In this document: piece by piece, positions 15,945-62,427 of the stretch
How positions within the stretch are numbered: position 1 is the stretch's first letter
How the letters are laid out: each line of letters begins with the position of its first letter
IMG/VR virus record: IMGVR_UViG_3300008267_000055
Reading direction: 5' to 3' (one strand)
Origin: an uncultured virus (IMG/VR IMGVR_UViG_3300008267_000055)
Lineage: Duplodnaviria; Heunggongvirae; Uroviricota; Caudoviricetes
Length of the DNA: 64,000 nucleotides
Program-made: the position numbers and the translations under genes
The notes under the pieces: model-generated
What the model was told of the DNA's origin: nothing
What the model saw: only the letters and a program-made list of their open reading frames with translations
The model's database searches: none

Positions 15945-17945
15945 TTAGGCAGCACCAAGTTCGAGTACCGAGTTGGTGTTAAAGGTCAGCCCACCACCGT
16001 AGCGGGCTGTTCCCGTGCCGGTGCCCGAGGCACCCGCGCGCAGCGTACCGTTAACGGTGACGTTGCCTGTGCCCGTGACTCGGCGCGGTGTCGCCACCGA
16101 GGTGACCAGTTCAAGCACGGCGCCCGTGGCGACGGAGATGGTGCCCGTGTTCGTGTTGTCGTGGCTCATCGCCTCAAGACGGAGGCTGCCCTGCTCCACC
16201 GTGGTGGGGCCTGTGTGACTCAGGACCCCGGACAGGGCCCAGTACCCGGTGCCATTCTTGACCAACCCCAGCGTCGCGCTATTCGTGCCAACTTCAGTAA
16301 CCGGGCCGGAAATGGTGTTGGCGTTGGTGTTCGTGCCAGCAAGCGTGAGGGTCATCCGAGCTGACGCAGTCGCCCCGCTGTTAGTGCGCTGAACGCCCCC
16401 AGTCAGGACGATGGCGTCAGTCCCAGACGACGCAAGAGTGTACACCCCCGCCGTCAAGACCGACGTTTGAGCGTTGTTCTCTGAGTCAATGATGACGTCT
16501 GTGTTTCTCGTCTCGCCTGCGCCGGCATAAGTGATTGAAGCCGTCAGAGAAAAGCCGGTGGCAAATGCAGCGCTGCCCAGCCAAAACTGCTGAGGCAAGT
16601 GATGAGTGACGAGCTTGCCGATCGGGTTTGACGAGTTTGAAAAGGCGATCGCCTGAAGCGAGCCGGCGAACCCTTGAATACTCCCGGGCCCTGACTCCGG
16701 AAAGGTGACTCCTGACCCTGCAAAGTTGCCCTGAATGACGATACCGCCAACCCCGGTAGGGCTGACTGGGAAGTTAAAGTCAGTTGACGTATCCCGGTAA
16801 AAGAACCGTGAGGTCGCGCTGGCAACGTTGAGCGCTGTCGGCTCATATCGGGCGTTCGCGGCAACCGCCAAGAGTCCAGAATTGATTGTGCAAGGCCCAG
16901 AAAGGCCTGATGAGTTACCAGTAAGGAACAGGCCGCGACTCTTTCCAAGAGTCGCCGAGGTCGTAATCCCACCAGTGCCGGACACGGTCCCAGACATCGA
17001 GACGGAGTTGCTTTGGATAGTTAGTGACCTGGCGTCACCAAGTGCAACCGAGCCGTTAAAAAACTGGCTGCCGCCCCCGCCAAAAAGCGTCACGTTTGTG
17101 TTGAAAGTCGTGCTTCCAGTAATCGTGAGCGCAGAACCTGTGTTGGTAAAAGTGAGCGGGCTTGCGCTTGTAAAGTCGACGGGGCCGTTGAAGGTGAACG
17201 ACCCTGAAGCAAGCGTGATCGTAGTGTTGCCTTTAAAGCTACACCCACCGCTAAAGGTGACCCCGGTGCTGCTCGCGTTGCTGATCGTCAACGTTCCGGA
17301 AACAGGCTCAAACGTGCATGGCTGAGTAAAGTTGACCGTCTTGAGGGAGGCAGCCGAGTTCTGAATCGTCGTGCTTCGCCTGAACCTAACCGGCGCGGAG
17401 ACGCTAGTTGTTGAGGTAGCGGTATCAAATATCAGGTTGGCCGTGGGTGCTATTGTCCCGTGGCCCATCTCAAGCGTGCCGCCGAAACCCTGAAACATGC
17501 CAAACGGACCATCTCGCACCACGATCAAAGCCAGCTGAGAGGCCACGCTCGGCGCATTGAGCACGACCCAGCCCAAGCCTATCTTGGTCATGGTGCGCCC
17601 TGCTCCGTTAAGGCGCGGGCTCCATCTGTGAGGTGTAGCCGAGACGACTGCGCCGGGCAGGTCAAACGTAAAGTCGTTTGCGACTACGATTGATTCACTG
17701 CCAGCTCCGATGATCCAAGGATGGCTAGACGTCGGGAAGTCGTCGATGCGAAGGTACACCGGCATCGTAGAGACGTCATTGCCGATCCCGGTGATTGAGC
17801 CTTGTGAGGTAATCTCTCGGCGGATGTACCCAAAGTCGCCAGTGCCAGGGGGCGAGAACCCGCCGACCCCACCGTCAACCTGAGACCAGTTAGCCGTTGA
17901 AGTCCAAACGCCACCGCTTGCGAGTCTCCAATACCGGGTTGCCAT
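15945..17945 (-). CDS. Beta-helical adhesin-like protein with autotransporter-associated (PATR) repeats, no secretion signal or beta-barrel
   Basis: LVKNGTGYWALSGVLSHTGPTTVEQGSLRL, MTKIGLGWVVLN; Gly/Thr/Ser-rich; N-terminal RYW...W...NW motif. Confidence 0.8.
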   Translation of the reverse strand: MATRYWRLASGGVWTSTANWSQVDGGVGGFSPPGTGDFGYIRREITSQGSITGIGNDVSTMPVYLRIDDFPTSSHPWIIGAGSESIVVANDFTFDLPGAVVSATPHRWSPRLNGAGRTMTKIGLGWVVLNAPSVASQLALIVVRDGPFGMFQGFGGTLEMGHGTIAPTANLIFDTATSTTSVSAPVRFRRSTTIQNSAASLKTVNFTQPCTFEPVSGTLTISNASSTGVTFSGGCSFKGNTTITLASGSFTFNGPVDFTSASPLTFTNTGSALTITGSTTFNTNVTLFGGGGSQFFNGSVALGDARSLTIQSNSVSMSGTVSGTGGITTSATLGKSRGLFLTGNSSGLSGPCTINSGLLAVAANARYEPTALNVASATSRFFYRDTSTDFNFPVSPTGVGGIVIQGNFAGSGVTFPESGPGSIQGFAGSLQAIAFSNSSNPIGKLVTHHLPQQFWLGSAAFATGFSLTASITYAGAGETRNTDVIIDSENNAQTSVLTAGVYTLASSGTDAIVLTGGVQRTNSGATASARMTLTLAGTNTNANTISGPVTEVGTNSATLGLVKNGTGYWALSGVLSHTGPTTVEQGSLRLEAMSHDNTNTGTISVATGAVLELVTSVATPRRVTGTGNVTVNGTLRAGASGTGTGTARYGGGLTFNTNSVLELGAA

Positions 17946-18853: not shown

Positions 18854-21424
18854 TCAGGCAGCAGCGGCGCCACCGATGTAGAGAGAAGAGCCCGCGTTGA
18901 AAGTAAGATCGCCACCGTAGCGCATCTGGCCCTTCTGCGTGGTGTTGTTGCTCGTCTTGACTGTACCAGAGACGACCACGTTGCCCTCGCCCAGAACCTT
19001 GCCGCTAGAGCCGCCGGTGGCTGGGTAGGTGCTCGTCATACACTCAACCGTGCCATTGCTGGCCACGGTGATAGCACTGCTCAGGGACGCGTTGCTGTTC
19101 GTAGCCTCAACTCGGAGAGTGCCGTTGTTGACAGAGGTAGTGCCTGAATAACTCAAGGCACCCTGCAGAACCCACTTGCCTGCGCCGTCCTTGACAAGGG
19201 TGGTAGTCCCAGACTGGTCAAGCAGAGCAGACTCAATCGTGTTTGGGTTCGTGTTAGAGCCCTGCAGCGTGATCGTTTTAGTGCCTGTCCCCAAAAGCGC
19301 AGTAGCAAACGTAACATCGCCCGTGCCTGAGGCATCAAGCTTGGGACTACTGCCGTTGAGGCGCACACTGCGAGTGGTGCGTGCAGTGACGCCCGTGTAC
19401 TTGAGTGTACCCGAGACCTCTACGATGGGAGCCAGCGCGCCAGTGCCCCAAGTGGCATTCGATCCAGAGTTGGCGACACTACCAATCGTCAGCGTGCCCG
19501 CATTGACGGTGACCAACCCTGTGAAGGTGTTGGCATCTTCTGTGAGCTCAAGCTCACCATCACCGTTCTTGGTGATGCCAAAGGCACCCGAAATAACGCC
19601 GGCACCCTGCGGAGACAGGGTCAGCTTGCTACCGGCGTCAACGGTGAAGGCCGCAGTGCCTGCAAGCGTGATACCCAGCGTCTGCAAGATGTTATTGCCA
19701 ACCGACACGATGGGGTTGGTGGCGTGGATAGTGAAGTTGGTACCAGACTTGTTGTAGGTACCCCCAGCCGTCAACAAGATCTGGCCCGTACCAGATGTCG
19801 TCACGCCCGAGGAAGTCGCCGCACCCAACCCGGTGACGTGTTGCACCTCAAGCACGCCAGTGCTGACGGTAATGGACCCCGACAGGTTGTTGGTGCCAGC
19901 GAAGACAAGCGGCCCCGTCAGCGTCTTAGAGATCGACAGAATACCCTGATCCTGTTCCTGTACGATATTACCCTGAATAGTGGTCGTGGCAGGGTTCGTG
20001 CCGACGAATGACAAGGTGCTAGCGGCAGAAGAAGTACCCGCGGCACCATATCTGCGGATGGACGTTGCGGCCACGAACGTAGTCGGGGCTGTGCCGGTGT
20101 TCTGTACCTCAAAAGTGTGTCCTGTCGTGCTCTGTGACGAGTACAAGTACAGCGAGCCTTGCATCGTAGTAGGGCTACCGGGTGCCCAGCTCATGCGGCT
20201 GATGCGCGTCGCAGATGTAGTCGTGTAGTAGAAAGACCCCAAGACATCAGCTGCCGCCGGCAAATTGGAACCAAAGCTGAAAACTGGCGATGGTATGGTA
20301 TTATCTACAATGACGGCTACTGTGCCTGGGAACTGTGCGATATTCGACGATGCTCCCATGGAGACCGTGACGTTCATGTTGTTCTGCAAGCCCGCATAGG
20401 AGCCCGTCACAGTCAGGGGTCTGTTCTCCGTAAAAGCGGTTGCGCCATAGTATACAAGCGTACCCGAGGTGTTACCTGTGAAGTTGAATCCCGTAACATT
20501 AGGCAGCAAGTTGGTGCTGCCGGAGTTGTAAACTCCTGTGTAAAGGCCACCCTGCTCGATGTCAACTGTGCCGCTAAGGGTGCTGGACCTGCGGACAACA
20601 AAAGACCCGATACCCGACTTGATAAATCCGTTGGTGCCTGTTAGTCCGCCATTCGACTCAGTATAGCTCGCAAAAGCTAGGGTGCGCTTAGTTGCTCCAA
20701 GAATAATAACAGACTGAATACCGAAGCTCCCACCGCTTGAACCGAGATCGACTCGGTTGCTGCTGATAGTCAAATCTTGCGTCAAGTCTCCCAAAAACTG
20801 AGCATCAGTCGTGCTGGGAAAGATGTAGACGCCTTCCCCTGCCACAGTAATGTTGGCGTTGGCGAGTACTGCGGCGCCGCTTGGGATCAAAATCGACAAG
20901 CCAGTGCGCTCACCAAGAATCAGGCGGCCTGTGAATGAGTTCAACGTGGCCGTTGTTCTCAGTGCAATGTATGCTTTGAACGCATTTTCAGTTGGGTGAG
21001 CATTCTCAATGGTCCAGTTGCTAGTGCCTGACACGCGATTCGCCTGAAAACCCAGAGCCCCGGGCCCTGCAGCATCTGAGTTGTACAGGATGAACGTGCG
21101 GGGCGACCCGCCTAGGGCAAACTGCCCATTAGAGCCTACGTTGAACAACCGATTGTTGGTCGTAGTTTGCTCAAACGCAGTGGCCCCGTTGAAGGTGATG
21201 GCTGTACCTGCGGTAGTCGGGTTCCACGTGATGGCGCCCGCAGCACCTTCAATCAGCAGTCCACTAATGCTCAGAGCACCGGTCAGCGTGGCGTTCAACG
21301 AGTTGGAAACAAATTTTGCGATGTCACCCGTGCCGGGTGCGGTCGCAGGCTGTACACCGTCTACCAACCACGCGGTGTTGGTATTGAGCGTGGCAATCGT
21401 GGGAGCTTTGACGTAAATCGCCAT
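18854..21424 (-). CDS. Beta-helical adhesin-like protein with at least 4 PATR repeats
   Basis: FIKSGIGSF..SGTVDIEQGGL, ISKTLTGPL..SGSITVSTGVL, ITKNGDGELEL..NTFTGLVTVNAGTL, LVKDGAGKWVL..YSGTTSVNNGTL. Confidence 0.85.
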   Translation of the reverse strand: MAIYVKAPTIATLNTNTAWLVDGVQPATAPGTGDIAKFVSNSLNATLTGALSISGLLIEGAAGAITWNPTTAGTAITFNGATAFEQTTTNNRLFNVGSNGQFALGGSPRTFILYNSDAAGPGALGFQANRVSGTSNWTIENAHPTENAFKAYIALRTTATLNSFTGRLILGERTGLSILIPSGAAVLANANITVAGEGVYIFPSTTDAQFLGDLTQDLTISSNRVDLGSSGGSFGIQSVIILGATKRTLAFASYTESNGGLTGTNGFIKSGIGSFVVRRSSTLSGTVDIEQGGLYTGVYNSGSTNLLPNVTGFNFTGNTSGTLVYYGATAFTENRPLTVTGSYAGLQNNMNVTVSMGASSNIAQFPGTVAVIVDNTIPSPVFSFGSNLPAAADVLGSFYYTTTSATRISRMSWAPGSPTTMQGSLYLYSSQSTTGHTFEVQNTGTAPTTFVAATSIRRYGAAGTSSAASTLSFVGTNPATTTIQGNIVQEQDQGILSISKTLTGPLVFAGTNNLSGSITVSTGVLEVQHVTGLGAATSSGVTTSGTGQILLTAGGTYNKSGTNFTIHATNPIVSVGNNILQTLGITLAGTAAFTVDAGSKLTLSPQGAGVISGAFGITKNGDGELELTEDANTFTGLVTVNAGTLTIGSVANSGSNATWGTGALAPIVEVSGTLKYTGVTARTTRSVRLNGSSPKLDASGTGDVTFATALLGTGTKTITLQGSNTNPNTIESALLDQSGTTTLVKDGAGKWVLQGALSYSGTTSVNNGTLRVEATNSNASLSSAITVASNGTVECMTSTYPATGGSSGKVLGEGNVVVSGTVKTSNNTTQKGQMRYGGDLTFNAGSSLYIGGAAAA

Positions 21425-21434
21425 GGTGCGCCTC

Positions 21435-24400
21435 TCAGGTCAGGGTGACAGACACGATGGTCGGAGCCGTGCCCGATGAAGTGATGGATGTGGTGTACAG
21501 TCCGGCTTCGCTGATGACCGTCAGGTTAGCAAGCCCCGTGACCGCGCCCGTCACCTCAAACAGCTCGTAGGTACCATCGGTCGCGTAGAGCGAGGCGTCC
21601 AGATACAGCGTAGTCGCACCGCTAAAGGTCAGGTCGCCTTCGACAAACTGCTTGCCGATGGTGAGCGTGGTCGGGACAGGCGAGCCACCCGGCGCTGTGG
21701 GCGGGTAGATGACGCCGGGCGCGCCAGACTTCAAGCGCATGACGACGTGCGACTTGTGCGGCTTGTCCTGGACGACCTCGACGAAACAAAGCGGCAGCTG
21801 CGTCGCGTCGATGATGAGGTTTGACAGCTGCGCCGGGTTCGGGAAGCTGCCGTACTGAAACAGCACGTAGTTGCCGCCGATGGGGTAGATGCCGGGGTCG
21901 AGCACGACCGTGGTCGGACCAGTGATAGCCAGCGCCCCGTCGACGTACTGCGTGCCCTCGTAGCTGTCGCCCGTCAGCGACCACGACCACGACCCGCCAG
22001 CCAGTGTCAGGTCAGGCCCGTTCCAAGAAACTTGGATGGGATGACGCGGAATGGCGTCCTCGCTGGTTCCGCTGCCGTCAACCGCCGTGGGCGTGAAGGC
22101 GAGGCTCACTGCGGCGTTCGTCGCAGTGCCGATTGCGTTCGTCGCAGTGACTGTGACGATCTTGTCCGTGGTAAGAACGGCGATCGCGTCTTCGCTAGTA
22201 CCCAACGCATTCGTAGCCACTAGGGCGTAAGCGATGAGGACAGGCGCGTCGGCCACTGTGCCAAGCGCGTGCACAGCGCTCGGCGTGTGGGCCGAGGCCA
22301 CGGCGGCGTCAGCCACTGTTCCCACCGCATCTGAGGCTGCCGGTGTCACCGAGTCGGTGACGGCGACCAGTACCGCCTCGCTCGTGCCGAGGGCGTTCGT
22401 CGCGCCCGGCGTCACCACCTTGGTGGCGGCGACAATGGCGTCGGCCACCGTGCCAAGGGCGTCGGTGGCCGCAGGTACGTACACCATGACCACCTGTGCC
22501 GCAGCCACAGTACCGAGAGCGTTGTTCGTCGCCGGCGTGACAACGCTGCCAATAGCTACAACCACGTCCTCGCTAGTACCAAGCGCTGCGCTTGTCCCAG
22601 GAGCGACGCTCAGGAAGGTCTCGGGGATGGCGGCAGTTCCAACGGCGTCCGCGACGCCCGGAATAAAGCTGGCGCTCACAGCAACGATAGCGTTCTCGCT
22701 GGTGCCGAGCGCGTCAGACGCAGGCGGAGTAACTGCGCTGCTGACCGCGATAAGCGCAGGCTCGCTGGTGCCAAGCGCGTCACTCGTGCCGGGAGCAACG
22801 CTCGTGTAGACCGCAGGGGTGACCACAGTTCCAACGGCGTCCGATGCATCCGGAGTGGAGCTATCGCTAACAGCGACGAGCGCGTTTGTGCTGGTACCGA
22901 GTGCTGCGAAAGCCGTCGGGGTGAAGCGATCACTGACAATGACGACGACCGCAGTGGCCTCCGTACCCACGGCGTCACTGACACTAGGTACCAAGGCCAC
23001 GCTCGTAGCAGGCACTGCGTCAGCCACGGTGCCGAGAGCGTTCGAGGTGCTCGGGGCAACGCTCAGGGCGACGAGGGCGCTGGCCGAGGTTCCGGCCGCG
23101 TCCTGCGCCGTGGGCTCGACGCTCACCACAACGAAGGCGCTTGCCGACGTACCGTCTGCATCAGAGGAGCTTGGGACAGTGGCTACCGCAACCAGTGCGT
23201 TGGCCGCCGTCCCAACAGCGTCGACCGCGTCGAGGGTCACCACGTCAGAGACATAGACGAGGCGCTGGAGGAGGTGCAGCACAACTTGCGTGTTCGCAGT
23301 GTCGTCCGTCAGGGCTGCGGCGAACAGGTTCGGCACGGCGGACGTGTCGATCGTGACGTACGTGTCGAGGCTGGCTTGGCCGCCAGAGAAAGACCCGTAG
23401 TCGAAGAGGACGTAGCTGCCGGGGGTCGCGAACGCCGTAGCGTTGAGTACGATCCGCGTCGGGCCTACGAAGACCAGCGCCCCCTCAACCGTCTGGGTGA
23501 CGTTGACGAAGGTGCCTTCCTCGCCCGAGGCCCCAACGGCGTCAACGGCGACAGGTGTGAACGCTGTGCTGATGCCAACGCCGGGGGTGGCTTCCGTACC
23601 AAGCGCGTCGGAGACACTCGGAATAAACGAGACCACCGCCACGGACGTCGAAGAGGTCCCGAGGGCATCGGCGACTTCAGGCACGACGAAGTCGGAAACG
23701 TGGACGGTCGGAGTCGAGGACGTTCCGAGGGCGGGCTCACTGGAAGGCGTAACCCAGTCGCCGATGATGACCACCGGGTAGGTCGCGGTACCCTTGGCAT
23801 CCATCGTGCTCGGGGTGTAAATCTTGGAGATCGAGATATTCGCTGCGGCCGAGGTGCCAATAGCGTCAAAGATCTCGGGGGTAACCCTGTCGGAAACGTG
23901 AGCTGTAACCTCTGAGGCCGTTCCGACGGCGTTCGAGGCTTCAGGAGTGAAGCTGTCAGAGACCACCACGAGGGCATCCTCAAACATACCCTCTGCGTCG
24001 GTAGCTCCGGGGGTGACTCGCACCGAGACAGAAACCGTCGTGTCAGAAACGGTGCCGACTGCGTCGGAGGTCTCGGGGGTCGCGTAGTCGGAGATCGAGA
24101 TTACGGCGTCGACAGACGTACCGACGGCTGCGGTAGTCGAGGGCGAGAACGCATCGTCGACCATCGGGATGGCCGGCTCAGAAGTACCGAGTGCGTCAGA
24201 AGCGGAGACCGTAAAGGTCTTCGAGGTGACTGAGGTTGCATCCTCCGACGTACCGATCGCGTCAAAAACGGTGGGCGTGAAGACCTCAGAGATCGAAACC
24301 TGTGCGTCAGAGCTCGTTCCAACGCCGTCGTGGGTGCCGGCCGGCGTGAAGCTATCCGACACGACGACCGAGGTCTCAGAAGCAGTCCCAAGGGCATCCT

Positions 24401-26543
24401 GCACGGCGGGAATAAACGAGATAACTGCGGAAACGCTCGCGCTCGTGCCGATAGCGTCCTCAGTTGTGGGCTCGAAGGTATCCGACACCGTCACGAGAGC
24501 ATCCGCCGAGGTACCGACGGCGGCGAGCGCCTCCGGCACGAAGAACAGACTTACCAGTGCATCAGTCGCCACTCCAAGCGCGTCGGACGTACTCGGACTG
24601 AGCGCGCTTCCAACCAGAGCATCCGTCGACGTGCCGACAGCGTCGGTAATATCGGGCGTAACCACGTCGGAGACGTGAACAGAAGGCGTTGCCGAAGTAC
24701 CGAGCGCCGGGTAGCTCTCGGGGGTTACTGCGTCGCCTATGATGACCGCTGGGTACGAAACGGTGCCTACGGCGTTGGCCGTCGTGACCTGGAACACGTC
24801 AGAGACGTGAACCGCAGGCGTGGCCGCCGTCCCCGAAGCGTCAGCTGCCGTAAGGGTGGGAGCGAGCGCAACGCTAGCATCAGTGCTCGTGCCGATGGCA
24901 TTGACCGCATCGGGCGTTACGGAATCCGAAACGTGTGCGGTTGCTCCGGCTGCCGTGCCAACGGCGTCGGACACCGTGGGCGCGAAGGAAGCCGCCACAA
25001 GGGCGCCCGAGGCCGTGCCGACTGCGTCAGCCGCATCGGGCTCGTAGACGTCAGAGACGTGCACCGTGGGCGAGGTAGAGGTGCCGAGTGCGTCTGTCGT
25101 GCCCGGCACGAGGGCCGAGCCTACCTGAATGTTAGATACCGTACCGACGGCGTCGGAGACCTCTACCGTAACTGCGTCAGAGACGTGAACAGTCGGGCTG
25201 GCAGACGTGCCGGCCGCAGACTCGCTAGAGGGCGTGATCCAATCGCCGATAATAACGACTGGGTAAGACTCTGTTCCTCTAGCGTGGGCCGCCTCAGGTC
25301 GGAAGACGTCTGAGACGTGTACGGTGGCGATGGATTCCGTCCCGAGGGCTGCCGCAGCCAAGGGAGAGTAGGCAACGCTCGGCAGCGTTGTAGCTTCGGT
25401 ACCGACTGCGTCGCTTGCCTGCGGGGAGAGACCAGAGGCCACCAAGGCATCAGCCGAGGTTCCGACGGCCGCTGTGGTCGCAGGGGTGAAGCTGTCAGAG
25501 ACGTGAACCAAGCGCTGCAGCAGGCGCAGGAACACACGCCCCGTGACCGGGTCGTCGGTCAGGGCGGCGACGAAGAAGTCCGGGACGGCGGAGGTGTCGA
25601 TCGTGACGTACGTGTCGAGGTCGCTCTGACCGCCGGGGAACGAGCCTGGTGTGTACCGGAAGAGGTCGTACTCGCCCGGGGTCGCGAAGGCAGCCGCCCC
25701 CAAGACGATGCGGGTAGGCCCTGCAAACAGCAGGGTACCCTCAACCGTCTGGGTGACGTTGATGAAAAGACCTTCCTCGCCCGAAGCCCCCACAGCGGCT
25801 GTAGTGGTGGGCGAAACCGCAAGGGCAATCAGGGGCACGGCCGCCGTACCGGTGGCATCGCTAGTCTCGGGCGAGACTGCGACGATGGCCCTAGCCAAGG
25901 CGGAGGTGCCGATAGCGTCTGCGACGGTAGTGTCGAACGAATCGGAAACGTGAACCGTGGCGTAGGCAACGGTCCCTACGGCGGGCTCGCTAGAGGGCGT
26001 GATCCAATCGCCAATAATAACGATCGGGTAGACCACACTACCCTTGGCGTCTACTGTTGCAGGCACCACGAAGTCTGAGACTGAGATAAAGACGTTCGAA
26101 ACTGTGCCGAGCGCGAAGGCAACGTCAGGCGTGAAGGTGTCAGAAACTACGACCTGAGCCTGAGCAGAAGACCCGATTGCGTCCGAGGCGTCGGGAGTGA
26201 CCACGTCAGAGACGTGAACCGTCAGCTCCGAGGGTGCGCCTACTGCGTCAGAAACCTCAGGAACGCTGACGTCGGAGACGTGTACCGTCGGAGAGGCAGA
26301 CGTGCCGATGGCGGGGGAGGCCTGCGGCGAAAAGGTATCGATGATACTTATGACGGGCGTTACGGAGGTTCCGATTGCCCCAAAGGCCTCAGGGACGAGG
26401 CCGTCATTGACGACGACCATCGGACGACCTACGGACGTACCAATCGCGTCTGCTGCAACAGGCGTAACCGTGGCATTCAGTGGAAGAATGCCGCCCGAAA
26501 AATACCAAAGTTTTCTAGGCCACCGCCATCCGCGCAAAAACAT
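21435..26543 (-). CDS. Giant repetitive fibre/stalk protein (dozens of about 22-26-aa P...DA[VL]GT repeats plus four about 70-90-aa inserted modules)
   Basis: 1702-aa ORF, Ala/Val/Thr/Ser-rich, recurrent TP.ASDAVGT...VHVSD units; GAGGTG RBS. Confidence 0.85.
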   Translation of the reverse strand: MFLRGWRWPRKLWYFSGGILPLNATVTPVAADAIGTSVGRPMVVVNDGLVPEAFGAIGTSVTPVISIIDTFSPQASPAIGTSASPTVHVSDVSVPEVSDAVGAPSELTVHVSDVVTPDASDAIGSSAQAQVVVSDTFTPDVAFALGTVSNVFISVSDFVVPATVDAKGSVVYPIVIIGDWITPSSEPAVGTVAYATVHVSDSFDTTVADAIGTSALARAIVAVSPETSDATGTAAVPLIALAVSPTTTAAVGASGEEGLFINVTQTVEGTLLFAGPTRIVLGAAAFATPGEYDLFRYTPGSFPGGQSDLDTYVTIDTSAVPDFFVAALTDDPVTGRVFLRLLQRLVHVSDSFTPATTAAVGTSADALVASGLSPQASDAVGTEATTLPSVAYSPLAAAALGTESIATVHVSDVFRPEAAHARGTESYPVVIIGDWITPSSESAAGTSASPTVHVSDAVTVEVSDAVGTVSNIQVGSALVPGTTDALGTSTSPTVHVSDVYEPDAADAVGTASGALVAASFAPTVSDAVGTAAGATAHVSDSVTPDAVNAIGTSTDASVALAPTLTAADASGTAATPAVHVSDVFQVTTANAVGTVSYPAVIIGDAVTPESYPALGTSATPSVHVSDVVTPDITDAVGTSTDALVGSALSPSTSDALGVATDALVSLFFVPEALAAVGTSADALVTVSDTFEPTTEDAIGTSASVSAVISFIPAVQDALGTASETSVVVSDSFTPAGTHDGVGTSSDAQVSISEVFTPTVFDAIGTSEDATSVTSKTFTVSASDALGTSEPAIPMVDDAFSPSTTAAVGTSVDAVISISDYATPETSDAVGTVSDTTVSVSVRVTPGATDAEGMFEDALVVVSDSFTPEASNAVGTASEVTAHVSDRVTPEIFDAIGTSAAANISISKIYTPSTMDAKGTATYPVVIIGDWVTPSSEPALGTSSTPTVHVSDFVVPEVADALGTSSTSVAVVSFIPSVSDALGTEATPGVGISTAFTPVAVDAVGASGEEGTFVNVTQTVEGALVFVGPTRIVLNATAFATPGSYVLFDYGSFSGGQASLDTYVTIDTSAVPNLFAAALTDDTANTQVVLHLLQRLVYVSDVVTLDAVDAVGTAANALVAVATVPSSSDADGTSASAFVVVSVEPTAQDAAGTSASALVALSVAPSTSNALGTVADAVPATSVALVPSVSDAVGTEATAVVVIVSDRFTPTAFAALGTSTNALVAVSDSSTPDASDAVGTVVTPAVYTSVAPGTSDALGTSEPALIAVSSAVTPPASDALGTSENAIVAVSASFIPGVADAVGTAAIPETFLSVAPGTSAALGTSEDVVVAIGSVVTPATNNALGTVAAAQVVMVYVPAATDALGTVADAIVAATKVVTPGATNALGTSEAVLVAVTDSVTPAASDAVGTVADAAVASAHTPSAVHALGTVADAPVLIAYALVATNALGTSEDAIAVLTTDKIVTVTATNAIGTATNAAVSLAFTPTAVDGSGTSEDAIPRHPIQVSWNGPDLTLAGGSWSWSLTGDSYEGTQYVDGALAITGPTTVVLDPGIYPIGGNYVLFQYGSFPNPAQLSNLIIDATQLPLCFVEVVQDKPHKSHVVMRLKSGAPGVIYPPTAPGGSPVPTTLTIGKQFVEGDLTFSGATTLYLDASLYATDGTYELFEVTGAVTGLANLTVISEAGLYTTSITSSGTAPTIVSVTLT

Positions 26544-54676: not shown

Positions 54677-56227
54677 TCAGGTACGCGACTCGACGTTCAT
54701 GTCGATGATCATCTTGTTCGGCTGCATAACAACCGGGGCCGCGAAGTAGAGCAGCGCAAACTGCTGCTTCAGGGCGCGCGGCACGGGCAGCGGGCGACGC
54801 ATCATCGGCAGGAGCTCAAGCATCTGAACGATGCTGGAGTTCCACTCCGAGATGATGATCGGGGCCGCGTCCGGGCGAACCTCGAGGAGCATGTCGTGCA
54901 ACGTGCTGCCGCCCATGCCCGCCGAGTTGCGCGGGAACGAGCCCGCCGGGCGGAAGCGCGAGATGTCCGGAGCGTCCGCGCCGGAAGCCACCGACGCCGC
55001 GAAAACGCGGACGTAGCGGATCGACTTCGAACCCTGACGGGGAACGAGCGCATCGGCCATCGTGAAGGTGACCGCGCCACCCTCGATGACGTCATCGACA
55101 GGGCCGATGATGCCAGTCGGGGTCGTGCCCTCGTCACCGACGATCTCGAACGCGAAGTACCAGTCACGAGCAGCGTCAGCCGCCGTGAAGTTACTGCCGG
55201 CGACCGGAGCAACCGTGGCACTGACCGACGGGAGGATCGGGTCCGGAGCCCCGTCGCCAACGGCGGTCGGGATCGGGGTCTTACGACCGCGATCGAGGAA
55301 GAACAGCGGCATGAGCTTGACGACGTTACCGAACGGCGTCACGAACTCGATGCCATCCGCGCCGAGGCGGAAGTTCTTCGTGCCCTCGTTGTACTTCGCG
55401 CGGGCGTACAGGTCGAGCTCCTGCGCGAGGTTACGGTAGTGCTCGGACGTGACGAAGCAGACCTCGGGGGTACCCCAGCGCGGTCCCTGCTCAATCAGAG
55501 CGGCGAGCTGCTGAAGGCGGTCGGCGTCGACGCGAGCACCATTCGAGTTGAGGAAGTTGGCCGGGGCCTCCTTCTTCACCTGCGAGATAATGCCGTCCCA
55601 GTGGTTGGGCGAGAGCGAGCTGTCAGCCCAGAGGACCTGCTCCTCGATCTTACGCGCGAGGTGCAGGGTAGCCTGCTGCGTACGCATCGAGAGGAGGTTC
55701 TGGTTGGCCAGCGTACCCGTGATCATCGTCGCCACGTCGGTGACTTCGAAGTACTCGGTCAGGTACTTGATCTGCGCCACGGCGCGGCGGTACGACGCCT
55801 CGCTCAGACCACCGACCGAACCCTCGCCGACGAAGCCGTCGAGGCCTTCCGAACCGTTGGTCACGATCTGCGCGTACTCGTAAACCGTCGAGCCCCACGA
55901 CTTACGCGGGATCATCTTGAACAGCTTCAGGTGCTTGTCGCTGAAGGTGATCGAGGTGAGGACGTTGTCGATCGACTGGGGAACGAGCGGGGCAAACTGG
56001 CCCTGCGGCAGGTCCTGCGAACCGAACGGAACGCCCTGCAGCGGGTAGTTAACGCCTTCAGCCTTCGAGAGCGAAACGCCCGCGCGCTGGAGGTCGGCAT
56101 TGAAAAGACCCGACTTCACCATCGGCTCGAGGTTACCAACCTCAGCCTCGGCGAGAGCATGGGCCATCTTGGAAACGAGTCCGCCGCCATTAAGAGCGTC
56201 GGCCTTGAGCGACTCGAGATCAAACAT
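54677..56227 (-). CDS. Major capsid protein
   Basis: 516 aa after protease and scaffold; QSIDNVL..ITF...LFK.I...STVYEY, IEEQVLWADS..WDGI pattern; strongest codon bias; AAGGAG RBS; terminator downstream. Confidence 0.9.
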   Translation of the reverse strand: MFDLESLKADALNGGGLVSKMAHALAEAEVGNLEPMVKSGLFNADLQRAGVSLSKAEGVNYPLQGVPFGSQDLPQGQFAPLVPQSIDNVLTSITFSDKHLKLFKMIPRKSWGSTVYEYAQIVTNGSEGLDGFVGEGSVGGLSEASYRRAVAQIKYLTEYFEVTDVATMITGTLANQNLLSMRTQQATLHLARKIEEQVLWADSSLSPNHWDGIISQVKKEAPANFLNSNGARVDADRLQQLAALIEQGPRWGTPEVCFVTSEHYRNLAQELDLYARAKYNEGTKNFRLGADGIEFVTPFGNVVKLMPLFFLDRGRKTPIPTAVGDGAPDPILPSVSATVAPVAGSNFTAADAARDWYFAFEIVGDEGTTPTGIIGPVDDVIEGGAVTFTMADALVPRQGSKSIRYVRVFAASVASGADAPDISRFRPAGSFPRNSAGMGGSTLHDMLLEVRPDAAPIIISEWNSSIVQMLELLPMMRRPLPVPRALKQQFALLYFAAPVVMQPNKMIIDMNVESRT

Positions 56228-56238
56228 GTGGTTTCTCC

Positions 56239-56886
56239 TTACAGGCTGATGCCGACGCTCTTGGCGAAGGCGGCGGGGTCATTGGCCGAGGCGGCGTTGG
56301 CGAGGGCGGTAGCAAGCTCAAGACGACGAGCGTCATTCGTGCCACCAGCACGGAGCTCGGTCGTCAGCTTACCGACGAGGCTCTTGCGCAGACGAACAAC
56401 GTCGTCCGGCGAGGCGCCCGGGGTGAGCTGGTCATGGGGCGAAGGAGCGTTGGTCACCGCGCCGAGGACCGACTGCGGAGCAGGGGCCTTGGCAGCGCCG
56501 CCGAGCGACTTCGCGATCTCAGCGTTGCGCTGGTCGAGCGACGTCAGGTGAACCGTCAGCTCCGAGATCATCTCGCCAATGCTGACGAGAGCCTTCGAAA
56601 GCTTGTTCGTCTCGGCCTTGACCTCAGCAACGGTGGCGTTGAAGAGCCCAGTCAGCTCGAGACCGGCGGTCGCCGGGATAATCGGCTGGACGGGCTCAGC
56701 GACCGCCGCCTGCGACTTGCGCAGCTCTTCGAGGATGCCCTCAAGCTTCTTGACGTCGATCGTCGAGCTCTGCTCGAGATCGTTCTCAACCTCGCCAGCC
56801 GAGATGGCCGACTTCACCAGATCCATAGCCTGGGCTTCGGGGACCTGCAGGTCCCGAAGCTTCGCGAGTCGCTCGCTTGCTTTCAT
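56239..56886 (-). CDS. Capsid scaffolding protein (putative)
   Basis: Coiled-coil with repeated LxKS/LxKA sites; between protease and capsid; start placed at ATG 56886 after AAGGAG. Confidence 0.75.
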   Translation of the reverse strand: MKASERLAKLRDLQVPEAQAMDLVKSAISAGEVENDLEQSSTIDVKKLEGILEELRKSQAAVAEPVQPIIPATAGLELTGLFNATVAEVKAETNKLSKALVSIGEMISELTVHLTSLDQRNAEIAKSLGGAAKAPAPQSVLGAVTNAPSPHDQLTPGASPDDVVRLRKSLVGKLTTELRAGGTNDARRLELATALANAASANDPAAFAKSVGISL

Positions 56887-56911
56887 GATTGCTCCTTGGG
56901 GTGTAGCTGGG

Positions 56912-57538
56912 TCAGCCAGCCATGATAACATCTGCGAGCTTCTCGGCCTGCTCCCAGGTCAGGTGTCGAAACTCTCTAACAAGCCGGTTGGTGACCTGAT
57001 CCTTATTCAGAAGTGTAGGATCTGCGTCCACTGCAGCCATAACTGCATTAACAGTCGAGCGGCTATGTCCGCGAGCGAACATAGAAGCTGCGATATCCAT
57101 CCACGTATCCGGATTTTTAGGAACAGGGCTAATAGCGATAGACATGACCTGCGCTTTAGTAACTCGCTTGCCTTTTCTGCCGCCGGGGAGGACACGCCCC
57201 TCGATGGAAAATCCCAGTGTGCGACGGCCACCAGCTTCGGCCATTGCCTTCTGGGTGTCGTAAACGAGTTTTCCGAAGGGGCGATTCAGATAGAGCTGTC
57301 CGCTAACGCGGGTCGCAAGCTTGCCGCTAGAGAGTCGAACCTGCTCGACCTTCTCAGGGTAGCCGGCGAGGCGCGCGATATCGACCGGGTGTTCGTACGT
57401 AAAAATGCCCTTGGTGAGACAGAACGACCAGTCCAAGCCGGTCTGGTCGATCTCGGTAATCGGAGCCGACACCGTGATGTCGGCTGGAAGCCAAGCCAAG
57501 AAATCGCCTGAAGACTGAAGTGCAACGTACGAAGACAT
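56912..57538 (-). CDS. Prohead (maturation) protease
   Basis: YEH, LGFSIEG and ISPVPKNPDT HK97/U35-type motifs. Confidence 0.85.
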   Translation of the reverse strand: MSSYVALQSSGDFLAWLPADITVSAPITEIDQTGLDWSFCLTKGIFTYEHPVDIARLAGYPEKVEQVRLSSGKLATRVSGQLYLNRPFGKLVYDTQKAMAEAGGRRTLGFSIEGRVLPGGRKGKRVTKAQVMSIAISPVPKNPDTWMDIAASMFARGHSRSTVNAVMAAVDADPTLLNKDQVTNRLVREFRHLTWEQAEKLADVIMAG

Positions 57539-57583: not shown

Positions 57584-59074
57584 TCACGCAGGCTTTGTCA
57601 ATGGTGGAAGTCTGCGACCATCGACAAAAGCCCCGACAGTATCAATGTCGAACTGCGGTGGAGCAACGTCGTTCTCCAAAATCTTCTGTGCAGCCTGTGA
57701 GAAGAACGCATTGAGCGGGAGATCTGCAATCGGGGTTGCAAGAGGTTCGAGACCACGCTCAACACGAAGCTCGTTCGGCGTTCGGTAGGTCGTAACCGCC
57801 GCCATGTCCATGTCATGCTTTTCGCGCTCGTTGCTGGCGTCAAAGCCAGCGAACTCGAACTTGAGCTGAGGCCACGTCGGCTTGATGACGTAGTAGTCAA
57901 TCCACGATTGGACAGCGCGCAACAGCGGACGAAGACCTCGCTCCTTGGACTGAAGGATTTTATCCATCGGGGAGGCGCTGATGAAATTCGACTTCGAACC
58001 TTCAGCACCGAAGACGTAGCCCATCTCCGATGGGTCGATCGCGTAAAGCGAGCAGGCGACCTTCAGGAGCCAGTTAATCCACTCAGCGAACTCCATCTCA
58101 GCGTTCGACTTACCGAGCGTGACGGCCTCAAGCTCTTCCTGCAGCTGGTTGGACAGCTGAATAATCGGAATACGCTTGAAGTTACGACCACCCGCCATCG
58201 AGGTCTGAATCTCGCGCCGGAACTCGTTAAACCGGTTCTGGTCCCAAGCAGACTTCAGGACGAGGGCCGTGTGGGCGTGAATACCGGTCGTGAAGTTGAC
58301 TTGGTTGAAGGTCTGAGCGTTAACGAGACCAGTAATAATCGACGCTAGCTGCTCAAGCTCGGGATGCCCGTAGCCGGAGAACTTGATGTCAGACCGTGGG
58401 CGGCGGATACCCCAAGCCATGTTGCCTGGCTCGTAGTAGTTCACGATCTCTCCCGAGGTCATGACCTGAACGAAGCCCTCGCTAAAATCCCAACGACCGT
58501 ACCGAGGAGCTGGCTCCCCGCCGTAAATCTCCTGAGTCGGGATAGCTCGGCGAATAGTTTTTGGATCGACTGGGATAAAGGCGTACGGCGTACCGTCCTT
58601 TTCCCGGATGATCTCAAAATTCACCTGGTCGTAGGTGAGCGTGTCCGGAATAATCACGCGAAGGAACTGCTCGAACCCGCCAGGGAGCCACTCCGCACCC
58701 GCTCGGCTGATGACCTCCGCCGCCTTTTCGATGGCGACGCGATCTTTTCGAAGCGGTAGAGACTGGCGCTTATCCATCCGGATTCGCCAGCCGATGTCGA
58801 CCGGGTTCTCTTGGGGTCGCGCCCAGTCCGTGGCTTGGTTTGTTCGCGTCTGATGGATGCCTGCGATCTGCGGGACGCTCGCCATCTGCGACAGCATGTC
58901 GTAGGTGATGCTGAGTGTTCCGTAGTGGTAGTCCCCCGTAGACCCGGTACGGGCCATCAGGTGCGCGTCGTTGATAAAATCAGCGTTGGCGGATCGCGGG
59001 GGAGAAACCGCAACCCACCTACGCCCGACCTTTTTCACCTCGGTGGAGGTGGGCTTGGTGGGTTGCTCTTTCAC
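57584..59074 (-). CDS. Portal protein
   Basis: DTLTYDQVNFE, PVDPKTIR, GYG.PELE, EMEF.EW...L....YAIDPSEMG, SKERGLRPLL, TPNELR..GLEP. Confidence 0.92.
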   Translation of the reverse strand: MKEQPTKPTSTEVKKVGRRWVAVSPPRSANADFINDAHLMARTGSTGDYHYGTLSITYDMLSQMASVPQIAGIHQTRTNQATDWARPQENPVDIGWRIRMDKRQSLPLRKDRVAIEKAAEVISRAGAEWLPGGFEQFLRVIIPDTLTYDQVNFEIIREKDGTPYAFIPVDPKTIRRAIPTQEIYGGEPAPRYGRWDFSEGFVQVMTSGEIVNYYEPGNMAWGIRRPRSDIKFSGYGHPELEQLASIITGLVNAQTFNQVNFTTGIHAHTALVLKSAWDQNRFNEFRREIQTSMAGGRNFKRIPIIQLSNQLQEELEAVTLGKSNAEMEFAEWINWLLKVACSLYAIDPSEMGYVFGAEGSKSNFISASPMDKILQSKERGLRPLLRAVQSWIDYYVIKPTWPQLKFEFAGFDASNEREKHDMDMAAVTTYRTPNELRVERGLEPLATPIADLPLNAFFSQAAQKILENDVAPPQFDIDTVGAFVDGRRLPPLTKPA

Positions 59075-61584
59075 TTGGAAAGCTCCTTCTGGAGGGCCTT
59101 GGAAAATCCAGCGCCGAGGTTCTTGGTCGCAGCGTGAACGGCTACCGCAACTTCAGCAGGAACGTCGTCCGAGGCCACCGCGTACAGCAGCTGTTCGGAT
59201 TTCGAGTAGCTCATGTAGTGGCAGTAGGTCACAGCCTTCTGAAGGTTGGCCTTCAGCCTATCCTGCTGCCACGTCTCAAACGGCGAAACCATGGACTTGG
59301 CGGACTCAGAGGTACCGCGCAACGCGATCTTGATCTTGCGAGCCTTAGCCTTGACGCGATCGATATCCGCAGTCGGAGCTCCTTCCTTCTTCATCTGCTG
59401 AATCTTCAGAAGATAATTGCGGAGCATCTTCTTGCTGGGCTTAGCTTCCTTGGGTGAGTTGGCAGGTCCGTCGCCCTTCTTGTCTGGCGCGTTCTTGTCG
59501 TCAGGCTTGCCCTTACCTTGACCCATCTCATGCCAGCGCCCGCCGCGCTTCTCAACAATCGTACCGTCGGCGTAACGCGAGACAGTTCCTTCGGGAGCAG
59601 ACTGAGGTCCACGAGTAACCCCAGCCTTAGATACACCCGCATGGAGTGCGTTAACCATGCCCTCGAAGTTATTTATAAGAGCCGCGCCCAGGGCCTCGAC
59701 CACCGACATCGGCGGAAGCCCCCCTCGCACGCTCGCTAGCACCCCTTCGGCCAACACTTGCTGAACGCGGGGCTCGGACAAAAGCGTTCGGGGACTTGGA
59801 GACGTTTCCTGGATTTTTGAAGGCTCGGGGGAGGGGGAAACAGTCTTCGAGCTCTCCTCCGCAATCGTCGTCGTCGAGGTCGACTTTTCGATCGGGCTCG
59901 GGGAAGGGGTAGGAGAGGGCTCGTTCGAGGAGATCTTTTCCTCGCTGAGAGAGGTTACGCATTCTGGCTCCTTGACCGTGCTAGCGATCTGCTGAGTGAT
60001 GCCTTTGATAATTTCCGGGGTGATGTCCTTCAGGTACTTGGAAGCCAAGTAGCTGCCGAGGGCCTCGGGGACCTCAATCGACTTGGAAGTCTTTTCGCGA
60101 GACTCCATCTGCTTCACGAGCTTGGCGGACCAAGACTTACCGGCGTTTCCACCCCAAAGCTGCCAAGCCACCCAAGCCGGGGAGGTCTTGTCGCCGAGTG
60201 TCCGCGAGCTGCTGCCGACCGAGTGGCGAGCAAACCACGCGTTCATCTTACGGGCCTTCTCGGGCGAGATTTTCTGACCAGCCGCAAGCTTGCTGGCCCA
60301 AGAAACGGTGGCTGCCACAAGGCCCTTACCGCCGTGGCCCTCCTCCTTGAGCTTCAGCCCAGCGCGGCACGCAGCGCGAACCCCAGCAGGAGGAGTAAAG
60401 TTTATACCGTCGTACGACTTCATGATGTCTTGGTCGCCGTCTGTGATGTCCTTCTCGACATCATCGCCAGCGTCCTCGTCAGACCCAACGTCGCTATCAC
60501 CATCGAGCGCGGCGAGCTCAGCATCAACGTCCATGTCTTCCCCTCGATTTTCGATGTAAGGCTCACGCTTCTTAAACGTATCTGGCCAGTATCTGTGACC
60601 GCCAGCCTCGTCTACCGCTGCGACGGACATGGCTACGGGCAGGTAGACCATTCCGTCCGGGGCTGCGCGGTGGCCGTAATTACGGGCCACAGCGTCCGAG
60701 ACGTTCATGATGACTTGGTTCACGGACGACATTCCCTGATGGAAGTCGACGTCGTCCATTTTCACGGGAGCGCTTTTAGACATGGCGTCAGCAGCCATCC
60801 GCATGTTCGCGTGAGCGCGGATAACTCCGAAATTCACGTCCTGAAGTCCAACCGTAGCGAAGGCCTCGGTTGGCTCGGCGAAAGAGCCGCCGTTGGCAGC
60901 GTAATCCGCGAGGGCTGGGTCGTAAACGTTGGCGATGAAAGCTCCCTGTGAGGGGTGCTCCACCATGAAGTGAAAGCGGTTCGGGTGCATCGAGTCGCGC
61001 GTGTCGGCCTTCTCGATAAAGAAGTCGAGCGAGTGCGACTTCTTAACCTCTCCGCGATAGACCCGCATCTTGTCGGGCGTCAGGGACGTAAAGACGTTAG
61101 GGCGGTGACCCGTGACCATCGACGCGTAAGCCGTAGCGGCGCCTGCGTCCTGCTTGTTCATGAGGCCTTCAAGAGTATCCATGGCCTTCATGATCTTGTC
61201 GTGATACTTACCACACTCCTTGTGAAGCGCGTATGCGCGCTGCGTGTGGAATGCGCGCGTGTAGGACTTCATCGTCTTCCCAGCGCTATTCTTCCACTTC
61301 AAGACTGGCTTGGTGTCGATGTCACCCTCAACGTCGATCTCGACGTGCTCAGGTGCGATCGACTCGTCTGGAACGTGGCCGTCAAGGTCGTACTGACCTT
61401 TCATTCGAGCCCAATGACTTGGCTTAGCGCCAAGGTCATCTGAGTTGCCGTCGCTGGTGGTTCGAAACTTCGACCGACCAGTGCTATCCCCGTCTTGAAG
61501 CTGTTTCCACCCAGAATCGAGCTTCTTCCAGACGGAGTTATCTGCGCGCTGGGACTCGGTTCCGATCGGTGCTCTCTTAGCCAT
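59071..61584 (-). CDS. Head-module multidomain protein with topoisomerase IB-like domain and a WQLWGG phage head domain
   Basis: 837 aa coupled to the portal; R161/R256/H305/Y314 pattern; FTPP..RH..AWQLWGG domain; two APxGT modules; acidic and Pro/Ser linkers. Confidence 0.7.
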   Translation of the reverse strand: MAKRAPIGTESQRADNSVWKKLDSGWKQLQDGDSTGRSKFRTTSDGNSDDLGAKPSHWARMKGQYDLDGHVPDESIAPEHVEIDVEGDIDTKPVLKWKNSAGKTMKSYTRAFHTQRAYALHKECGKYHDKIMKAMDTLEGLMNKQDAGAATAYASMVTGHRPNVFTSLTPDKMRVYRGEVKKSHSLDFFIEKADTRDSMHPNRFHFMVEHPSQGAFIANVYDPALADYAANGGSFAEPTEAFATVGLQDVNFGVIRAHANMRMAADAMSKSAPVKMDDVDFHQGMSSVNQVIMNVSDAVARNYGHRAAPDGMVYLPVAMSVAAVDEAGGHRYWPDTFKKREPYIENRGEDMDVDAELAALDGDSDVGSDEDAGDDVEKDITDGDQDIMKSYDGINFTPPAGVRAACRAGLKLKEEGHGGKGLVAATVSWASKLAAGQKISPEKARKMNAWFARHSVGSSSRTLGDKTSPAWVAWQLWGGNAGKSWSAKLVKQMESREKTSKSIEVPEALGSYLASKYLKDITPEIIKGITQQIASTVKEPECVTSLSEEKISSNEPSPTPSPSPIEKSTSTTTIAEESSKTVSPSPEPSKIQETSPSPRTLLSEPRVQQVLAEGVLASVRGGLPPMSVVEALGAALINNFEGMVNALHAGVSKAGVTRGPQSAPEGTVSRYADGTIVEKRGGRWHEMGQGKGKPDDKNAPDKKGDGPANSPKEAKPSKKMLRNYLLKIQQMKKEGAPTADIDRVKAKARKIKIALRGTSESAKSMVSPFETWQQDRLKANLQKAVTYCHYMSYSKSEQLLYAVASDDVPAEVAVAVHAATKNLGAGFSKALQKELSK

Positions 61585-61635: not shown

Positions 61636-62427
61636 TCAACCAGTTCGGTCTACCTTCTGAAAATCGAAAGCTGCCTTCAGAATGTTAGGCAGTCTAGATA
61701 TTTTTAGGTCCTCTTCCAAGAGGACTTGCGACTCTCGCTCAACTACGACGAAAACATCTCCGCCAGACAGGGCTGTGATGGAGATGTAGAGCCTGCCGAC
61801 GCCCCAAGTAGCGGTTACTGTCTCGCCCATGCAGGATATTTTCGGTTTTCGTATTTGAGGATGCTTGGATTTAAACGTTACGTGCGCGACTGAGCCGTGG
61901 GTGCGCCAGAAAGACAGCGCCAAGTTTCTTCGGTGCAGGGCCGCTTTTGACTTGGTCGTGTTTCGGATGACGATAGCGTCTTCTATAGACATCGGGCCTG
62001 GGTCTGGATGCTGGTTCCCCCAGATCAGGTCCTCTATCGACTCTTTCTGGTACTCGACAGCAGGAGGAGTCTCGTCGCCGTACCACCTAGAGACTGCAAG
62101 CTGAAAAACGCGCATAGCCTCGGAGGCTACTTTCTCATCCGAGAAGTCCGAGGCGTGGCTTCGGCCCATTTCTTTTTGTAGCCACCGCTTAGGATTTTTA
62201 TTCAGGGCTTGAAGACTAAGGTCAGAACACACTTCTGGTAGAGGTTCGTACTTATCTAGCTCGGTAGTATTATTTATCTGCTTGTAGCAGATGTTACAGA
62301 GACCCCTGGCTCGATAAAAAAGCTTCGGAGGAGTACCTCCGCAGTATCTGCACTTAGGGCAGACCTGTGGCCACGGCCTTCCGCCAACATATTCTCCGCT
62401 TTTACGTGGCTTGCTTCTCCGTGACAT
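61636..62427 (-). CDS. Hypothetical protein with N-terminal zinc finger
   Basis: CPKCRYC...GLCNICY; basic N-terminus. Confidence 0.7.
   Translation of the reverse strand: MSRRSKPRKSGEYVGGRPWPQVCPKCRYCGGTPPKLFYRARGLCNICYKQINNTTELDKYEPLPEVCSDLSLQALNKNPKRWLQKEMGRSHASDFSDEKVASEAMRVFQLAVSRWYGDETPPAVEYQKESIEDLIWGNQHPDPGPMSIEDAIVIRNTTKSKAALHRRNLALSFWRTHGSVAHVTFKSKHPQIRKPKISCMGETVTATWGVGRLYISITALSGGDVFVVVERESQVLLEEDLKISRLPNILKAAFDFQKVDRTG

Follow-up and report, generated by a model that had tools for sequence, protein, structure and literature searches.

A divergent topoisomerase IB-like domain in a head-module protein encoded next to the portal of an uncultured myovirus

The window analysed here, a stretch of 64,000 nucleotides from an uncultured virus of the Caudoviricetes (IMG/VR record IMGVR_UViG_3300008267_000055), contains beside its portal gene an open reading frame (ORF) for a protein of 837 amino acids (aa), P0001, in which an initial annotation had suspected a hidden domain of the type IB topoisomerases (TopIB). 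Our preferred interpretation, to which we give slightly better than even chances, is that aa 58-345 of this protein are a very divergent TopIB homologue which serves as the DNA-binding module of a head-associated protein, and that the function common to its family is a non-covalent gripping of DNA. Such a function is favoured because the nucleophilic tyrosine has been replaced many times among the homologues, with the rest of the pocket conserved. The TopIB-like module would thus probably act mainly by holding on to DNA in or at the phage head.

A TopIB-like fold hidden in a head-module protein was borne out by an AlphaFold2 (AF2) model and by independent structure searches. The model of aa 58-350, calculated from an alignment of 31 sequences without templates, was confident (pLDDT 88.2, pTM 0.84) and showed the two-lobed architecture of TopIB enzymes with an N-terminal sheet domain and an alpha/beta catalytic domain. 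A Foldseek comparison with the PDB, as proposed in the initial annotation, led to TopIB chains in all of the first 20 rows (best E 1.3e-4; TMq <=0.52 over ~307 columns), namely the variola enzyme (3igc, 2h7g, 2h7f), human Top1, the Deinococcus enzyme (2f4q, 3m4a) and that of Leishmania, and tyrosine recombinases and protelomerases were found in the rows below. Against BFVD, a library of predicted viral structures, the best rows were the TopIBs of an Ostreococcus virus, a parapoxvirus, Pseudomonas phage PaBG and Achromobacter phage Motura, and VIA-align, a second structure aligner, likewise gave TopIB matches. The combination of catalytic-domain fold, R-K-H-R-H/W-Y residue set and Phage_integrase profile match that marks tyrosine recombinases was not found in the N-terminal domain.

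Profile alignment placed the domain in register with phage enzymes of this type. A tblastn search with the PaBG TopIB detected TopIB genes in 21 jumbo-phage records, and seven aligned jumbo-phage TopIBs, in which R, K, R, H and Y are invariant (7/7), were used as the template for hhalign. A query of eight sequences gave one colinear match over 242 columns (score 41.0, E 1.5e-4) and a query of 30 sequences a match over 213 columns (score 40.0, E 2.1e-4), compared with a score of 15.2 for the reversed template and 23.0 for the best of 30 block-shuffled templates. In this alignment R161, R256, H305 and Y314 are paired with the invariant R362, R470, H515 and Y530 of the phage TopIBs (PaBG numbering) respectively. 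The 'YT' motif of the TopIBs falls on SYT (aa 107-109), and the position of the first arginine was aligned with the eight-sequence query and gapped with the 30-sequence query. The second TopIB lysine (K468, PaBG numbering) falls on V254, which is variable in the family. From the position of the hairpin in the model (aa 203-221) and a spacing of 12-13 residues to a shared 'DP' motif, the counterpart of the hairpin lysine would rather be H210, so that this invariant histidine of the family may stand where the TopIB hairpin has its catalytic lysine.

The initial annotation had read its assignment from short sequence strings between positions 60580 and 61380, which correspond to aa 69-335 of the ORF, and all of them could be located: WKNSAGKTMKSYTRAFHTQR at aa 97-116, ASMVTGHRPNVFTSLTPDKMRV at aa 153-175, RFHFMVEHPSQGAFIANVYDPALA at aa 203-226, GVIRAH at aa 253-258 and VARNYGHRAAPDGMVY at aa 299-314. 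R161, R256, H305 and Y314 are present with the spacings of 95/49/9 that it had given, and the canonical F.GK lysine, whose apparent absence it had noted, is indeed not obvious in the ORF.

The domain was further compared with its own homologues. The word-index search with the 837-aa ORF yielded 14 of them, and an exhaustive phmmer search with aa 58-350 against 1.84 billion representatives yielded 26 proteins at E <=1e-3, 23 of them at E <=1e-10. Among these 23, 21 are 692-1227 aa long and have the start of the domain at about residue 31-69, except for one at residue 254; of the remaining two, one (693 aa) has its N-terminus within the domain and the other is 356 aa long. No homologue of the N-terminal domain was detected in a scan of 185,579 species-representative genomes, and a metagenome scan for the family gave at least six loci. 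So far the family is known from viral and metagenomic contigs only, and its carriers are uncultured myoviruses of 60-100 kb.

Conservation of the catalytic residues was read from the alignment of 31 sequences, of which one row (P0032) is incomplete near the site. The R/R/H/Y set, which according to the initial annotation should be kept in homologues, turned out not to be conserved as a whole: arginine at the R256 position and histidine at the H305 position are each found in 29/31 sequences, with methionine at the R256 position in two further loci (L019 and L020), and the position of R161 is arginine in 18/31 and that of Y314 tyrosine in 21/31, phenylalanine in 8/31 and histidine in 2/31. Lysine is found at the K192 position in 23/31 sequences, H113, H210, D266 and K270 are invariant (31/31), and the positions of H160 and H258 are histidine in 28/31 each. 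A maximum-likelihood tree of the 30 rows without P0032 showed five changes to phenylalanine and one to histidine, and its starred branches force at least five independent losses of the tyrosine. In the sister clade P0010-P0012 (47-54% identity to the window protein) both arginines and the histidine are kept and tyrosine alone is changed, to phenylalanine. An obligatory covalent or genome-linking role is therefore unlikely for the family, since the tyrosine has been lost repeatedly, and the covalent topoisomerase or genome-bonding role suggested earlier is weakened, although all four residues are kept in the window copy. Loss of the tyrosine with retention of the pocket is the pattern expected if the pocket binds the DNA backbone and the covalent step is dispensable. 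Judged by its residues, catalysis by the window copy itself is possible, though it would not be a conserved function of the family.

From these data the following mechanism may be proposed. Residues 58-345 would form both lobes of a C-shaped DNA clamp, the front module of a modular, 'polyvalent-type' head-associated protein that would be co-expressed with the portal and either built into the procapsid or loaded via it. The clamp would bind duplex DNA, with R256, H305 and the near-invariant, family-specific H160, H210 and H258 holding the backbone in the former active site, and it would hold, organise or protect the packaged or entering genome, strand cleavage and religation not being part of the shared function. 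As an extra activity, nicking or relaxation of DNA may persist in the window copy and its close clade.

Several observations weigh against this interpretation. Topoisom_I (PF01028) was not detected in P0001 at E <=0.1, in the 31 members at E <=1 or in a six-frame search of five related records at E <=10; the PaBG TopIB as positive control passed the Pfam threshold with 58 bits. The hhalign probability for the N-terminal domain against the phage TopIBs was no higher than 46-52%, and the alignment was informative only with the seven-sequence template, the match to the single PaBG TopIB sequence being not significant (probability 0.4%). As the hhalign probability is close to 50% and the single-sequence template gave a null result, the homology rests on structure and profile evidence combined. 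The counterpart of the general-acid lysine is ambiguous, as hhalign gives K192 at low confidence. DNA binding by the module is deduced from homology and the virion location from gene context, the phages of the family being uncultured; no fusion to a MuF or portal domain was present in P0001 or the 31 members, and no known capsid-targeting signal was found. Finally, all of Arg-Arg-His-Tyr is kept in the clade of eight sequences to which the window protein belongs, and this would suit an active enzyme no less than a clamp.

This last point leads to the alternative of a working, virion-carried TopIB comparable to that of poxviruses, in which Tyr314 would nick and religate the genome and thereby relax it during ejection, early transcription or replication, and the relatives with phenylalanine or histidine would be decayed versions. 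We regard it as unlikely, yet serious enough to be kept in mind. The window copy and its clade of eight have R161, R256, H305 and Y314 together with K192 and H210, the hhalign register falls on the catalytic residues, and the 21 jumbo-phage records show that bona fide TopIB genes do occur in phages. Furthermore, the virion proteins of a jumbo phage of Ralstonia are reported to include a DNA topoisomerase (PMC7247149). The record of phiRSL1 annotates ORF108 as topoisomerase IB. On the other hand, the nucleophile is the one residue of the set missing from the sister clade (47-54% identity) and was lost at least five times overall, the second lysine corresponds to the variable Val254, a canonical GK lysine is not clearly present, and the domain has diverged beyond the reach of Pfam. 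A further possibility, which we find doubtful, is a rebuilt TopIB active site in which R256 together with H210, H160, H258 and H305 lines the pocket and the tyrosine is dispensable. Its chemistry or binding mode would then be new to the fold, for example a metal- or histidine-dependent transaction at DNA ends or a clamp, loaded into the capsid, that would enter together with the genome and protect or organise it. The family would in that case be a branch, invisible to Pfam, of a wider habit among tailed phages of having TopIB modules in the head.

Returning to the TopIB-like domain, its place within the ORF and the other parts of the protein are as follows.

59071..61584 including the stop codon, minus strand: multidomain ORF P0001, 837 aa (ORF list and translation).
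61414..61584, minus strand: N-terminal leader, aa 1-57, conserved in the family with the consensus RADGSVWxK...WKQxxDG.
60550..61413, minus strand: TopIB-like domain, aa 58-345, with R161, K192, H210, R256, H258, H305 and Y314 (AF2, Foldseek against PDB and BFVD, VIA-align, hhalign with controls, site table).
60409..60549, minus strand: acidic linker, aa 346-392 (read from the sequence; AF2 confidence is low from about aa 343).
60082..60405, minus strand: helical middle domain, aa 394-501, similar to phrog_2859 (E 1.5e-14; helices modelled at pLDDT ~85).
59791..59982, minus strand: disordered linker rich in Ser, Thr and Pro, aa 535-598 (composition; model pLDDT <50).
59074..59772, minus strand: C-terminal modules, aa 605-837, with a helical domain, a motif in a beta-hairpin (aa 668-687) and, at aa 768-835, a C-terminal helical domain that is conserved (AF2; the motifs are conserved in the family).

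The N-terminal domain (aa 58-350) gave no match in Pfam, NCBIfam or PHROGs and no usable one in the ESM Atlas, and searches of the PDB sequences, queried with the full-length protein, with the domain and with two profiles, led to nothing or to a chance or low-complexity match alone. The only part of the ORF with a PHROG match is aa 394-501 (phrog_2859, a PHROG annotated as of unknown function), which is separated from the TopIB-like domain by the acidic stretch (aa 346-392) directly C-terminal to it. The AF2 model of aa 385-837 was weak overall (pLDDT 66.9, pTM 0.32), with the C-terminal helical domain itself well predicted, and had no match among PDB structures at E <=1e-3.

A similar short motif is seen near both ends of the protein, RADNSVWKKLDSGW at aa 13-26 and YADGTIVEKRGGRW at aa 672-684; the likeness was noted by eye, and conservation is family-wide. 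The second of these, located in the beta-hairpin, resembles by eye the N-terminal RADNSVWKK...W motif. The recurring motif may be a docking or targeting element. As a candidate for a targeting tag shared between proteins, the pattern [RY]ADG..[VW].K was present in the 837-aa protein alone among the ORFs of the window.

Besides the constant N-terminal module, the homologues carry domains that can be exchanged. InPase (PF18823) is present in 6/31 members and ferritin (PF00210) in 3/31. The L016 protein has InPase at aa 473-598, and in the L019 protein (L019:1297-4638) ferritin is inserted at aa 198-326 in a loop of the TopIB-like domain. A ferritin/Dps-like domain is also fused behind the prohead protease in L016 (10449-11633) and L017 (10969-12228), so that it looks like an iron- or DNA-binding cargo moving between carriers of the head locus, and the two kinds of carrier, the protease gene and the TopIB-like gene, suggest a delivery to the same place. 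The phrog_2859-type middle domain is a travelling module as well. It forms the N-terminal part of a Mu-type protease in L012 (5951-7879) and of the 'major head protein' of S-CBS1, and is found in a 'minor head protein' of a Nodularia phage and as a stand-alone 'putative DNA-binding protein' beside topoisomerase II genes in PaBG. Besides the stretch in L012, the module was located at:

L021:7914-8246: phrog_2859-type domain.
L014:4004-6514: phrog_2859-type domain.
L013:4548-6041: phrog_2859-type domain.

In its long multidomain form, its interchangeable effector domains and its place among the virion genes of a portal-terminase phage, the protein corresponds to what is called a polyvalent protein. 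That it is packaged in or loaded into the virion would be plausible from its position in the head module, the swappable cargo domains and the fusions of the middle domain.

The window is a fragment of a myovirus genome. Its replication module lies at 1-12.3 kb, and the minus strand bears genes for lysis, tail fibres, baseplate, sheath and head. The neighbours of the ORF in the head module are:

61636..62427, minus strand: zinc-ribbon protein of 263 aa with an N-terminal CPxCRxCG...CNIC (alignment).
57584..59074, minus strand: portal gene (PF04860 and phrog_12).
56912-57538, minus strand: prohead protease (phrog_1028).
56239-56931, minus strand: putative scaffold (named from its position only).
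54677-56227, minus strand: major capsid protein, SU10-type (PF17236; the scan of this part of the head module also gave phrog_752).

Upstream of the zinc-ribbon gene, a divergently transcribed gene for ParB was found, followed by one for a MazG-like pyrophosphatase. The zinc-ribbon protein has no family match in Pfam, NCBIfam or PHROGs. Two large proteins of the tail-fibre region (15945-17945 and 18854-21424, minus strand) carry passenger-associated transport repeats (PATR), whose usual setting is the passenger of autotransporters.

The survey of homologues beside portals that had been recommended gave a uniform picture, as a portal homologue lies directly downstream on the same strand in 16/16 related loci, which represent at most 14 distinct contigs (L004/L030 and L008/L031 are identical DNA). 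Similarly, the zinc-ribbon partner precedes the TopIB-like gene in all 11 loci with upstream DNA, and in the window the TGA stop of P0001 and the GTG start of the portal gene overlap. This invariant order and the stop/start overlap, which suggests a coupled expression with the portal, would also be explained by a packaging factor that is coupled to the portal and acts with the zinc-ribbon protein and the terminase in gripping, retaining or end handling of the DNA, rather than by an injected cargo. In L018, L019, L020 and L034 the distance between the block and the end of the contig is ~0.3-1.3 kb, which would fit such a factor, but in a related genome (G002, see below) the contig ends overlap, so that this proximity may have arisen as an artefact of the assembly. 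In addition, the variable InPase and ferritin cargo fits delivered proteins better than a part of the motor, and we consider a packaging factor slightly more doubtful still than the rebuilt active site.

The initial annotation had also remarked that the gene sits where a terminase is usually found. The slot before the portal is indeed occupied by it; the likeness is one of position only. No large terminase (TerL) was recognisable in the window by family scans, none of five terminase families was detected in the related records searched, and the TerL gene of this phage presumably lies outside the 64 kb. In the relative G002 (101,255 bases; L036-L041) a TerL of 1192 aa is encoded at 21816-25394 (L037:2816-6394) on the minus strand (phrog_38, E 6e-56; phrog_15); counting across the junction, ~26 kb separate it from the zinc-ribbon/TopIB-like/portal block. 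A replacement of the terminase by the TopIB-like gene was therefore rejected, as G002 has a conventional TerL elsewhere. In this TerL the ATPase-side match covers aa 32-257 and the nuclease-side match aa 730-1178, which leaves ~470 residues between them unexplained, possibly an intein or an inserted domain. The G002 record is listed as linear and 68% complete. Its ends overlap by ~126 bases, positions 24-149 recurring at 101130-101255 with a 2-base difference in a GT run, and because of this overlap G002 probably represents the whole of a circular or terminally redundant genome (~101.1 kb).

The same genome bears on the idea of a terminal protein linked covalently to the genome end via Tyr314. 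A covalent 3'-phosphotyrosyl link is within TopIB chemistry and the window copy has the tyrosine, but this residue is absent in 10/31 homologues, and the conventional TerL and overlapping ends of G002 are as for headful or terminally redundant genomes, which makes a terminal protein very improbable. Least credible of all is that the TopIB likeness is an artefact of prediction or a convergence of an unrelated domain, since two structure aligners, three libraries and the colinear profile alignment agree on family and residue register above the controls, even though no sequence-to-profile match was significant and the hhalign probability is the modest one given above.

A TopIB fold that is invisible to sequence libraries thus forms the constant N-terminal module of a family of head-locus proteins, and an orphan gene that always adjoins the portal obtains a concrete annotation. 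The homologues offer a natural Tyr/Phe/His series in which to ask what a non-cutting TopIB clamp does, and there is a parallel with the virion-carried enzyme of poxviruses. Should packaging be true, DNA-topology or DNA-gripping modules would join the proteins that are delivered with phage genomes. In the literature on TopIB in connection with phage, capsid, virion or polyvalent proteins, as far as its text was accessible, no TopIB-fold domain in a phage head protein was found.

TopIBs occur in eukaryotes, in poxviruses and giant viruses, in some bacteria and, going by annotation, in a few jumbo phages. Compared with the enzymes of variola (2h7f/2h7g/3igc) and Deinococcus radiodurans (2f4q/3m4a), the window domain is only ~9-13% identical and PF01028-negative, its family lacks a conserved tyrosine and first arginine, and the domain is fused to a tail of ~490 residues with further modules. 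The TopIBs of jumbo phages (PaBG gp084, Lu11 gp203, phiRSL1 ORF108 and Motura gp210) are likewise phage-encoded proteins of this fold, but they are 540-670 aa long, carry the TopIB part C-terminally and have an invariant R/K/R/H/Y set (7/7), and in the records examined their genes lie among those of nucleotide metabolism and replication, away from the portal. The gene of gp084 (within L023, PaBG 48000-66000) lies in a mixture of structural and nucleotide-metabolism genes, at a distance of ~4 kb from the gene for the major head protein.

With the polyvalent proteins of phages, which are likely packaged in the virion and of which InPase is one domain (Iyer et al., 2017; PMC5512222), the window protein shares the long modular form, the locus among virion genes and the InPase of its relatives, and it differs in that its family has no MuF or portal fusion. 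In the main text of the same article, 'tyrosine recombinase' and 'integrase' do not occur and 'topoisomerase' appears once, in the title of a cited reference. Catalytically silent DNA binders with the fold of tyrosine recombinases are represented by MrpR/YopR of SPbeta (8a0a/8bj6/8bpz) and SroF of Phi3T (9rd5). Whereas these are small, stand-alone regulators from the recombinase branch, the window protein would be a two-lobed, TopIB-like clamp within a head module.

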